From assembly GCF_000027125.1 (NCBI RefSeq), contig NC_017626.1: a DNA stretch of 64,000 nt. One strand, given 5' to 3'. The translations under genes and the position numbers were made by a program. This DNA comes from Escherichia coli 042. GTDB lineage: Bacteria > Pseudomonadota > Gammaproteobacteria > Enterobacterales > Enterobacteriaceae. The notes below the pieces were generated by a model, which saw only the letters and a program-made list of their open reading frames with translations, searched no databases and was not told where the DNA came from. Shown one piece after another: positions 48,284 to 55,652 of this stretch; the stretch's first letter is position 1, and each line of letters opens with the position of its first letter.

Positions 48284-49441
48284 ATGGCGGAAGGAAAAGC
48301 AATGTCAGAATTTTTGCCTTTTTCGCGACCAGCAATGGGCGTGGAGGAACTCGCTGCAGTTAAAGAGGTTCTCGAATCCGGTTGGATCACAACCGGTCCG
48401 AAGAATCAGGCGCTTGAACAAGCCTTTTGCCAGTTGACGGGAAATCAGCATGCCATCGCGGTCAGTTCAGCCACCGCCGGAATGCATATCACGCTAATGG
48501 CGTTGGAAATTGGCAAGGGCGATGAAGTGATTACGCCTTCCCTGACCTGGGTTTCAACCCTCAATATGATTTCCTTGTTGGGTGCAACGCCGGTAATGGT
48601 GGATGTCGACCACGATACGCTGATGGTCACGCCTGAAGCGATCGAGTCAGCCATTACGCCACGCACTAAAGCCATCATTCCGGTGCATTATGCCGGTGCG
48701 CCAGCAGATATTGACGCCATTCGCGCCATTGGCGAACGTTACGGCATCGCAGTTATCGAAGATGCTGCCCATGCCGTCGGTACGTATTACAAAGGGCGAC
48801 ATATTGGCACAAAAGGTACCGCTATTTTTTCGTTTCACGCCATCAAAAATATTACCTGTGCGGAAGGTGGCCTGATTGTTACAGATAATGAAAACCTTGC
48901 CCGCCAGCTACGGATGCTGAAATTTCACGGTCTGGGTGTCGATGCCTATGACAGACAAACCTGGGGCCGTGCACCGCAAGCTGAAGTCTTAACACCGGGC
49001 TATAAGTACAATCTGACCGATATTAACGCCGCGATTGCCCTGACACAGTTAGCAAAATTAGAGCACCTCAACACCCGTCGGCGCGAAATTGCCCAGCAAT
49101 ATCAGCAAGCACTGGCAGCTCTCCCCTTTCAGCCATTAAGCCTTCCCGCCTGGCCGCACGTTCACGCCTGGCATCTGTTTATTATTCGTGTCGATGAACA
49201 ACGTTGTGGTATCAGTCGCGATGCGTTGATGGAAGCGTTAAAAGAAAGAGGTATTGGTACCGGGTTACATTTCCGCGCCGCTCACACACAAAAATATTAT
49301 CGCGAGCGTTTTCCCACGCTGTCGTTACCGAATACCGAATGGAATAGCGAACGCATCTGTTCGTTGCCGCTGTTCCCGGATATGACCACCGCCGATGCCG
49401 ACCGCGTCATCACAGCCCTTCAGCAACTCGCAGGACAATAA
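48284..49441 (+). CDS. arnB: UDP-4-amino-4-deoxy-L-arabinose aminotransferase (alternative start 48302)
   Basis: DegT/ArnB PLP aminotransferase. Confidence 0.93.
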
Positions 49442-49444
49442 GCC

Positions 49445-50413
49445 ATGTTTGAAATCCACCCTGTTAAGAAAGTCTCGGTGGTTATTCCCGTTTATAACGA
49501 GCAGGAAAGCTTACCGGAATTAATCAGGCGCACCACCACAGCCTGTGAATCACTGGGGAAAGAGTATGAAATCCTGCTGATTGATGACGGCAGTAGCGAT
49601 AATTCCGCGCATATGCTGGTCGAAGCCTCACAAGCGGAGAATAGCCATATTGTGTCTATTTTGCTTAACCGCAATTACGGGCAACATTCAGCGATTATGG
49701 CGGGATTCAGTCACGTTACTGGCGACTTAATTATTACCCTTGATGCCGATCTTCAGAATCCGCCAGAGGAGATCCCCCGCCTGGTGGCAAAAGCCGATGA
49801 AGGCTACGACGTGGTAGGAACTGTGCGTCAGAACCGCCAGGACAGCTGGTTTCGTAAAACCGCTTCGAAGATGATTAACCGGCTTATTCAGCGCACCACT
49901 GGCAAAGCGATGGGTGACTATGGTTGTATGCTGCGCGCCTATCGCCGTCATATTGTCGATGCGATGTTGCACAGCCATGAACGCAGCACCTTTATCCCGA
50001 TTCTGGCGAATATCTTCGCCCGCCGTGCCATTGAAATTCCAGTGCATCATGCCGAGCGTGAGTTTGGTGAATCCAAATACAGTTTTATGCGCCTGATTAA
50101 TTTGATGTACGACCTGGTGACCTGCCTTACCACAACGCCGCTACGTATGCTGAGTCTGCTCGGCAGCATTATTGCGATTGGCGGTTTTAGCATTGCGGTG
50201 CTGCTGGTGATTTTACGCCTGACCTTCGGACCACAATGGGCGGCAGAAGGCGTCTTTATGCTATTTGCCGTGCTGTTTACTTTTATTGGCGCTCAGTTTA
50301 TCGGCATGGGATTACTCGGTGAATATATCGGCAGGATCTACACCGATGTCCGCGCCCGCCCCCGCTATTTTGTTCAGCAAGTTATCCGTCCATCCAGCAA
50401 GGAAAATGAATAA
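49445..50413 (+). CDS. arnC: Undecaprenyl-phosphate 4-amino-L-arabinose (formyl) transferase
   Basis: 322-aa GT2 enzyme (LLIDDGSSD), C-terminal TM helices. Confidence 0.93.
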
Positions 50414-53282: not shown

Positions 53283-54934
53283 TGAAATCGGTACGTTACC
53301 TTATCGGCCTCTTCGCGTTTATTGCCTGCTATTACCTGTTACCGATCAGCACGCGTCTGCTATGGCAACCCGATGAAACGCGTTATGCGGAAATCAGTCG
53401 AGAAATGCTGGCATCCGGCGACTGGATTGTGCCCCATTTGTTAGGGTTACGTTATTTCGAAAAACCCATTGCCGGATACTGGATTAACAGCATTGGGCAA
53501 TGGCTATTTGGCGCGAATAACTTTGGTGTGCGGGCAGGCGTTATCTTTGCGACCCTGTTAACTGCCGCGCTGGTGACCTGGTTTACTCTGCGCTTATGGC
53601 GCGATAAACGTCTGGCATTACTCGCCGCAGTGATTTACCTCTCATTGTTCATTGTCTATGCCATCGGCACTTATGCCGTGCTCGATCCGTTTATTGCCTT
53701 CTGGCTGGTGGCGGGAATGTGCAGCTTCTGGCTGGCAATGCAGGCACAGACGTGGAAAGGCAAAAGCGCAGGATTTTTACTGCTGGGAATCACCTGCGGC
53801 ATGGGGGTGATGACCAAAGGTTTTCTCGCCCTTGCCGTGCCGGTATTAAGCGTGCTGCCATGGGTGGCGATGCAAAAACGCTGGAAAGATCTCTTTATTT
53901 ACGGCTGGCTGGCGGTCATCAGTTGCGTACTGACGGTTCTCCCCTGGGGACTGGCGATAGCGCAGCGGGAGCCTGACTTCTGGCACTATTTTTTCTGGGT
54001 TGAGCATATTCAACGCTTTGCACTGGATGATGCCCAACATAGAGCTCCGTTCTGGTACTACTTGCCGGTCATCATTGCCGGTAGCCTGCCGTGGCTGGGA
54101 TTACTCCCCGGAGCACTGTACGCAGGCTGGAAAAACCGCAAGCATTCCGCAACCGTCTATTTGTTGAGCTGGACGATAATGCCGCTGCTGTTTTTCTCCG
54201 TCGCTAAAGGCAAATTGCCCACCTATATTCTTTCCTGCTTTGCACCTCTGGCAATGCTGATGGCGCATTACGCTTTGCTGGCAGCAAAAAATAATCCTCT
54301 GGCGTTGCGGATTAATGGCTGGATTAACATCGCTTTTGGCGTCACTGGCATTATTGCTACGTTTGTGGTCTCCCCCTGGGGACCTATGAGCACGCCGGTG
54401 TGGCAAACCTTCGAGAGCTATAAAGTCTTCTGTGCATGGTCGATTTTTTCGCTATGGGCATTTTTCGGCTGGTACACCTTAACAAACGTCGAAAAGACCT
54501 GGTATTTTGCCGCACTTTGCCCGCTGGGGCTGGCGTTGCTGGTAGGATTTTCAATTCCTGACAGAGTCATGGAAGGAAAACATCCGCAATTTTTTGTCGA
54601 GATGACACAAGAATCACTGCAGCCAAGCCGCTATATTCTTACTGACAGCGTGGGCGTTGCCGCAGGTCTGGCATGGAGCCTGCAACGCGATGACATCATC
54701 ATGTATCGTCAGACAGGTGAGTTGAAATACGGCCTTAATTATCCGGATGCGAAAGGGAAATTTGTCAGCGGTGATGAGTTTGCAAACTGGCTTAATCAAC
54801 ATCGTCAGGAGGGGATTATTACACTCGTGCTTTCGGTTGACCGCGATGAAGATATCAACAGTCTCGCCATTCCGCCCGCAGATGCCATCGATCGTCAGGA
54901 GCGTCTGGTGCTGATTCAGTATCGGCCCAAATGA
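53282..54934 (+). CDS. arnT: Undecaprenyl-phosphate-Ara4N:lipid A arabinosyltransferase
   Basis: 550-aa polytopic GT83 enzyme. Confidence 0.95.
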
Positions 54935-55266
54935 TCTGGCTAACATTAGTCTTTGCCAGCTTGCTTAGCGTTGCCGGGCAGTTGTGTCAGAAACAAGCAA
55001 CCTGCTTTGTGGCGATAAACATACGGCGCAAACATATCGTGCAGTGGCTGGGACTGGCGCTGGCTTGTCTTGGCCTTGCCATGGTGCTCTGGCTGCTGGT
55101 CTTGCAGAACGTACCGGTAGGCATTGCCTACCCGATGTTAAGTCTGAATTTTGTCTGGGTGACGCTGGCTGCAGTAAAACTGTGGCACGAGCCGGTATCA
55201 CTGCGTCACTGGTGTGGGGTGGCGTTCATTATTGGCGGCATTGTGATCCTCGGGAGTACGGTGTAA
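54931..55266 (+). CDS. arnE: Ara4N-undecaprenyl-phosphate flippase subunit ArnE
   Basis: 111-aa SMR-like 4-TM protein. Confidence 0.9.
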
Positions 55267-55652
55267 TGGGCCTGATGTGGGGATTATTCAGCGTCATTAT
55301 TGCCTCAGCTGCGCAATTAAGCCTGGGTTATGCGGCGAGTCATCTACCGCCGATGACGCACTTATGGGATTTTATCGCGGCGCTGTTAGCTTTTGGCCTG
55401 GATGCCCGGATACTGTTACTCGGGCTGCTGGGTTATCTGCTTTCCGTTTTTTGTTGGTATAAAACGCTACATAAACTTGCGTTAAGCAAAGCCTATGCCT
55501 TGCTCAGTATGAGCTATGTGCTGGTATGGATTGCATCAATGATACTTCCCGGCTGGGAAGGAACTTTTTCGCTGAAGGCACTACTGGGAGTTGCTTGTAT
55601 TATGAGCGGGTTGATGTTGATTTTCCTGCCCACGACAAAACAACGTTACTGA
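55266..55652 (+). CDS. arnF: Ara4N-undecaprenyl-phosphate flippase subunit ArnF
   Basis: 128 aa from [10 protein letters not shown]; start overlaps arnE stop. Confidence 0.9.

Follow-up and report, generated by a model that had tools for sequence, protein, structure and literature searches.

Overlapping stop and start codons in the arnBCADTEF operon of Escherichia coli 042 and their compatibility with junction-specific translational coupling

Our analysis has shown that five consecutive gene junctions in the arnBCADTEF operon of Escherichia coli 042 consist of overlapping stop and start codons. The operon lies in a 64,000-nucleotide (nt) stretch of contig NC_017626.1 (assembly GCF_000027125.1), referred to here as the window, which covers the atoS-rbn region of the E. 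coli chromosome. The arnBCADTEF genes are responsible for making 4-amino-4-deoxy-L-arabinose (Ara4N) and attaching it to lipid A. An initial annotation of the window had listed overlaps at arnC/arnA, arnA/arnD, arnD/arnT, arnT/arnE and arnE/arnF, and had concluded that they imply translational coupling and fixed stoichiometry along the pathway. When read from the sequence, all five overlaps are exact and carry the motifs that were quoted (Table 1); the span given for them, 49441-55270, opens on the final base of the arnB stop codon and closes just beyond the arnF start. Based on the sequence features described below, we think it likely that the arn genes are translationally coupled in a junction-specific manner, with a dependence on upstream translation that differs from one junction to the next. 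The spacing permits coupling, and it neither proves coupling nor fixes the ratios of the proteins. The overlaps themselves are real, ordinary and already known biology.

The locus is the E. coli arnBCADTEF polymyxin-resistance operon, as both its gene order and the equivalog-level matches of its products place it in this operon family. Gene coordinates were obtained by mapping annotated RefSeq genes one by one onto the window with BLAST and confirming each as an open reading frame (ORF). All seven arn genes are intact, ATG-initiated, co-directional ORFs. Positions 47000-57000 of the window match several complete E. coli chromosomes in RefSeq at 100% identity, and the records of these give the order ais, arnB, arnC, arnA, arnD, arnT, arnE, arnF, followed by pmrD, menE, menC and menB on the opposite strand; at least 80% of this segment is found in 5,411 of 5,426 RefSeq complete genomes. 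In published work, arn is regarded as a single BasRS-induced operon (PMC10962826). Of the seven genes, only the first, arnB, has a true 5′ leader. Promoter-like sites inside the operon occur at chance frequency (10 against 9.9 expected), as do terminator-like sites (8 against 9.4 expected), and internal promoters or terminators that would split the operon were rejected because the matches do not exceed this level. At the far end, arnF (+ strand) and pmrD (- strand) are convergent and their 3′ ends share 7 nt (55646-55652), which leaves no intergenic space for a shared terminator; terminator-like matches nearby are again at chance level.

The six arn junctions have spacings of +3, -1, -4, -1, -4 and -1 nt in operon order, and at arnT/arnE the ATG of the downstream gene lies within the stop of the upstream gene. 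All six fall inside the range of -8 to +10 nt that predicts termination-reinitiation (Huber et al. 2023, PMC10666635). Coupling is most efficient between -4 and +3 nt (reviewed in PMC12548453), and a spacing of about 20 nt almost abolishes it (PMC10666635). However, -4 and -1 are by far the commonest spacings across 1,695 prokaryotic species (PMC10666635; reviewed in PMC12548453), and the window itself is no exception. Among its 36 adjacent same-strand gene pairs, including atoS/atoC, 15 are at -1 or -4. Outside arn, 18 same-strand pairs are tightly spaced (30 nt or less), and 10 of them have one of these two spacings. The arn pattern is thus strongly non-random when compared with random spacing and unremarkable when compared with other operons.

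The overlaps depend on start codons that appear to be correctly placed. All seven Arn proteins score above the NCBIfam equivalog cut-offs, and positions 1-2 of the profiles align to residues 1-4 of the proteins. When the proteins were searched by tblastn against 80 other species, the N-terminus fell on a start codon at residue 1 in 78 of 79 ArnA and 78 of 80 ArnD sequences. For arnE, the first 15 codons offer no other in-frame start in nearly all of the species listed, the few exceptions being an ATG at codon 2, 3, 5 or 6, and the hydrophobic first helix of ArnE starts at about residue 3.

The geometry is also conserved across species. The 80 loci were gathered by ArnD alignment and come from Enterobacterales and a few Burkholderiales or Betaproteobacteria metagenome-assembled genomes; the arn genes were located by tblastn, and the in-frame stop and the start codon closest to the position aligned with E. 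coli residue 1 were taken. Over the five overlapping junctions together, a -1 or -4 overlap was present in 333 of 393 cases, with arnD/arnT being the least conserved junction (Table 1). Where arnD and arnT do not overlap, almost all gaps lie between 0 and +33 nt; +61 and +88 are outliers. Individual junctions switch frequently between the two overlap classes: arnD/arnT is -4 in E. albertii and -1 in E. coli, arnC/arnA, a -1 junction in E. coli, has -4 in Citrobacter and Salmonella, and arnE/arnF is evenly divided between the classes. This indicates that the overlap state is kept while the sequence turns over. The N-termini of the downstream proteins are fixed, and the lengths of the upstream proteins vary (ArnC, 292-330 aa; ArnT, 546-572 aa). 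The arn loci on two contigs of one Pantoea allii assembly (NZ_NTMH01000031.1 and NZ_NTMH01000032.1) agree exactly in junction geometry and junction sequence, which points to a duplication, either of the region or in the assembly.

The junctions differ markedly in the Shine-Dalgarno (SD) sequences that precede the starts. SD strength was calculated as the energy of the anti-Shine-Dalgarno duplex over positions -21 to -4 relative to the start codon (Table 1). The SD sequences of arnA and arnF are conserved, with 66% and 81% of species, respectively, at or below -5 kcal/mol, and those of arnD and arnT are weak. The arnE start has essentially no SD in about 70 species, and its energy is weaker than that of internal coding controls. 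At arnT/arnE, species with the overlap have a mean energy of -0.65 kcal/mol against -3.35 kcal/mol in the six species in which the genes are separated by a gap (Mann-Whitney p = 0.006), a comparison with n = 6 on one side and species that are not phylogenetically independent. Such a gain of SD strength upon loss of the overlap was seen at arnT/arnE only, and not at arnD/arnT (p = 0.33) or arnA/arnD (p = 0.59). We regard the conserved absence of an SD before arnE as only a mildly new detail.

Table 1. Genes, gene junctions and translation starts of the arn operon, and other overlaps named in the initial annotation. Spacings are in nt; SD energies are in kcal/mol; species counts refer to the 80 other species.
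Feature	Position	Strand	Description	NCBIfam match (bits; cut-off)	SD energy in E. coli; species mean	-1/-4 overlap across species
arnB	48302-49441	+	UDP-Ara4N aminotransferase; RefSeq 100% identity	NF008658 (740.7; 631)	-5.7; -5.2	
arnC	49445-50413	+	undecaprenyl-phosphate Ara4FN transferase	NF007986 (668.8; 529)	-4.0; -4.7	
arnA	50413-52395	+	bifunctional formyltransferase / UDP-GlcA oxidase	NF005998 (1259.4; 777)	-5.4 (SD-like AAGGAA); -5.3	
arnD	52392-53282	+	Ara4FN-undecaprenyl phosphate deformylase	NF011923 (521.8; 382)	-3.3; -4.3	
arnT	53282-54934	+	lipid A Ara4N transferase	NF009784 (813.1; 567)	-3.8; -4.0	
arnE	54931-55266	+	flippase subunit, SMR family	NF011625 (205.1; 92)	-1.7; -0.9 (78 species)	
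arnF	55266-55652	+	flippase subunit, last gene	NF002816 (138.8; 99)	-6.9 (GGGAG inside arnE); -6.9	
Random internal coding positions (control)					mean -2.6	
arnB/arnC junction	49439-49447	+	TAAgccATG, +3 (3-nt gap, no overlap)			7/77; +1 or +2 gap in 50/77
arnC/arnA junction	50411-50415	+	TAATG, -1 (1-nt overlap)			76/78
arnA/arnD junction	52392-52395	+	ATGA, -4 (4-nt overlap)			67/80
arnD/arnT junction	53280-53284	+	TGATG, -1 (1-nt overlap)			47/79
arnT/arnE junction	54931-54934	+	ATGA, -4 (4-nt overlap)			71/78
arnE/arnF junction	55264-55268	+	TAATG, -1 (1-nt overlap)			72/78 (36 at -1, 36 at -4)
atoS/atoC overlap	1737-1740	+	ATGA			
atoA/atoE overlap	4627-4630	+	ATGA			
menC to menE overlap	57374-57377	-	ATGA			
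menD to menH overlap	59964-59967	-	ATGA; pair experimentally shown to be translationally coupled (PMC6728339, PMC10666635)			

Taking the geometry and the SD pattern together with published reporter work, we infer that translation of an upstream arn gene contributes to initiation on the next. In this compact layout each downstream start would lie within the footprint of a ribosome terminating on the upstream gene. Upstream translation and termination could then promote the next initiation, either through a retained terminating ribosome or 30S subunit or through the unwinding of non-specific local structure. The extent of this dependence is predicted to differ between junctions. Because it has no SD, arnE probably depends almost entirely on ribosomes that terminate at arnT. 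Initiation at arnA and arnF is probably assisted by their conserved SDs inside the upstream coding region and may also occur de novo, whereas arnD and arnT would be intermediate in their dependence. The starts of arnC and arnA appear to sit in unusually unstructured RNA. The output of the genes would then co-vary, with ratios set by the efficiency of each junction and not at 1:1.

The claim that the overlaps imply coupling survives in part. The geometry is favorable, and of five native E. coli pairs with an ATGA overlap that were examined in reporter assays, four were coupled, including menD/menH of this window (Huber et al. 2019, PMC6728339). For four of the five E. coli pairs in that work, coupling fell by 60% to 100% once the SD had been removed (PMC6728339). 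"Implies" is nevertheless too strong a word, since an ATGA pair can be uncoupled, the arn junctions are heterogeneous and neutral 3′-extension of genes also yields overlaps.

Several observations weigh against coupling in arn. The run of five overlaps is ordinary in comparison with neighboring operons (P = 0.17 for at least five of six). None of the arn junctions exceeds shuffled sequence in folding stability (z from -0.7 to +1.9), the arnB/arnC (z = +1.88) and arnC/arnA (z = +1.82) regions being less structured than the shuffles, and RNAalifold found no conserved pairs at arnT/arnE in 43 species, the sole junction tested by alignment. In 32 of 79 species a gap separates arnD from arnT and SD strength does not change to compensate, which suggests that the overlap is not essential at this junction. 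Among the pairs tested in reporters, the ATGA pair bioB/bioF was initiated de novo and was uncoupled (PMC6728339). Depletion of ribosome recycling factor left coupling unchanged, also at overlapping pairs (Saito et al. 2020); these authors oppose re-initiation as the main mechanism, whereas Huber et al. favor termination-reinitiation. Lastly, full-text literature searches found no report linking arn or pmrHFIJKLM to translational coupling or ribosome profiling. The folding results also bear on one specific mechanism, the unmasking of an inhibitory mRNA hairpin as in the L11 operon or MS2, which we rejected given the lack of excess stability at the junctions and of conserved pairs at arnT/arnE. 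An ArnT-ArnE fusion produced by frameshifting was rejected as well, on inspection by eye: in the arnT frame, the sequence leading into the ATGA (CGG CCC AAA TGA) does not form a canonical slippery site, and it varies between species.

The alternative that fares best is neutral compaction, in which the overlaps are by-products of the evolution of gene ends. An upstream gene that loses its stop would be read through to the next in-phase stop, and each arn gene would be initiated independently. The downstream start readily supplies such a stop, as ATGA contains TGA, and TAATG and TGATG end their stops at the A of ATG. A simulation of upstream 3′-elongation reproduces much of the empirical distribution of overlap lengths and explains the excess of long phase-1 overlaps without selection (Fonseca et al. 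2013, PMC3887535). Fixed downstream N-termini combined with variable upstream lengths, as found for arn, are what 3′-elongation predicts, and the free occurrence of gaps at arnD/arnT fits the same view. The SDs that arnA and arnF possess, together with the open RNA at arnB/arnC and arnC/arnA, are compatible with independent initiation. Against this stand the SD-like sequences that emerge where the arnT/arnE overlap has been lost, and the dependence of four of the five analogous E. coli pairs on upstream translation in reporters. Further, how an overlap arose does not decide what it now does to translation, and a neutral origin is compatible with coupling. On balance we consider it unlikely that neutral compaction with independent initiation accounts for arn, and junction-specific coupling is the reading we prefer.

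A more extreme form of coupling, which corresponds to the fixed stoichiometry of the initial annotation, would have the chain of overlaps enforce essentially equimolar amounts of the Arn proteins, with every downstream protein made only by ribosomes handed on from the gene before. ArnB, ArnC, ArnA, ArnD and ArnT are separate enzymes, soluble or membrane-bound, and we know of no need for them to be equimolar. The presence of all six junctions in the coupling range would suit this proposal, as would the 4.5-fold enrichment of overlapping pairs for subunits of heteromeric complexes in E. coli (PMC10666635). ArnE and ArnF form an SMR-family pair reported as a glycolipid flippase, in a family whose paired genes encode obligate heterodimers (PMC9574504), and they are likely to be the only plausible stoichiometric partners in the operon. 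However, SD energies that range from -1.7 to -6.9 kcal/mol in E. coli, along with differences in local structure, should give differing initiation efficiencies. De novo initiation can lift the downstream gene several-fold above the upstream gene (PMC6728339), and for 69.6% of tightly spaced E. coli pairs the products are not subunits of a complex (PMC10666635). Repeated re-initiation at less than 100% efficiency would produce a declining gradient and not equal amounts. Coupling is thus better described as proportional, with an efficiency specific to each junction, than as equal; the claim of fixed stoichiometry along the pathway does not hold up, and we view equimolar output as very improbable.

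Weakest of all is the idea that the overlaps are an annotation artefact, with starts called too far upstream and true starts downstream that leave ordinary gaps: gene callers do favor long ORFs, ATGA and TAATG starts are a known default and the tnpB/yfaV overlap of this window, with its annotated CTG start, resembles such a miscall, yet the profile alignments of every Arn protein, the cross-species agreement of the N-termini and the lack of alternative arnE starts exclude mis-called arn starts almost completely.

Within the preferred reading, junction-specific coupling, the arnT/arnE junction invites a bolder proposal, namely that it is an obligate, SD-independent site of termination-reinitiation across Enterobacterales, so that synthesis of ArnE, and hence of the ArnE/ArnF flippase, would be confined to ribosomes that have just completed ArnT. 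We put this forward tentatively and doubt that it holds in so strict a form. If it were true, flippase output would be tied to transferase output, and this could reflect co-translational assembly of flippase and transferase in the inner membrane.

The same overlap pattern had been pointed out at four other pairs in the window, atoS/atoC, atoA/atoE, menE/menC and menH/menD, and all four are indeed ATGA overlaps; the men pairs lie on the - strand and had been written in reverse order (Table 1). The window contains further overlaps that had not been listed: atoD/atoA, menB/menC and nrdB/yfaE at -1, glpB/glpC and yfaA/yfaT at -4, and glpA/glpB at -11. The glpA/glpB overlap (37168-37178) is longer and rarer than the -1/-4 class, is followed by the ATGA of glpB/glpC and joins genes whose products are subunits of one enzyme. 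On the - strand, tnpB (IS200/IS605, 43108-44316) and yfaV (41837-43111) have an annotated 4-nt overlap (43108-43111) that exists only if yfaV begins with CTG. Insertion or annotation seems to have produced this overlap by accident, and it does not resemble a designed operon junction; geometry alone is no proof. The menC gene (- strand, 57374-58337) owes its length of 964 nt to a C/G homopolymer at 58207-58213 that has seven bases where reference strains have six, and its reading frame changes near codon 42. An 80-nt query around this site matched 2,288 complete E. coli genomes (best identity 98.8%), and the seven-base run was absent from all of them; a homopolymer sequencing error and a private mutation are the two explanations. 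Should the frameshift be real, ribosomes would be kept from the menC/menE overlap.

Other features of the window lie apart from these overlaps. The MFS transporter gene that adjoins inaA (29345-30535, - strand) has a premature stop at codon 292 (position ~29662), caused by a single C-to-T change at nucleotide 874 of the gene relative to the closest reference strain. Compared with two reference strains, the window has insertions or deletions and is not collinear upstream of 31421. About 484 bp are missing at ~31421, and a LysR-type regulator gene (30687-31424) is cut to 245 codons (879 nt in the reference). The window's only Rfam match above the gathering score is naRNA4 (RF02564; 26999-27069, - strand, 82.3 bits), located in the 233-nt spacer between nrdA and nrdB.

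The link between stop/start overlaps and translational coupling has been studied since the 1980s. The arn overlaps matter little as a discovery, because -1 and -4 are the commonest operon spacings, their link to coupling is long studied and any annotated E. coli genome displays the overlaps. They do have practical consequences, since mutations or epitope tags at the ends of arn genes can exert polar translational effects on the next gene, which is relevant to polymyxin-resistance genetics. In addition, arnE offers a clean natural candidate for SD-independent re-initiation, as it does without an SD in about 70 species.

The closest known systems frame these predictions. Salmonella and other Enterobacterales carry these seven genes in identical order as arnBCADTEF or pmrHFIJKLM (pbgPE), and the matches are at equivalog level; nothing material differs between E. 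coli and these genera, and single junctions vary only in detail (-1 or -4). The bioB-bioF pair has an ATGA overlap and a very weak SD, and bioF is translated de novo despite the overlap, so that geometry of the arn type is no proof of coupling by itself. The coupled E. coli pairs trpB-trpA, menD-menH, hyfH-hyfI and astD-astB resemble arn in being co-directional, in having a -4 or -1 overlap and, often, in carrying an SD inside the upstream gene. In contrast to these pairs, arn has six tight junctions in series, among them arnT/arnE, which has no SD.

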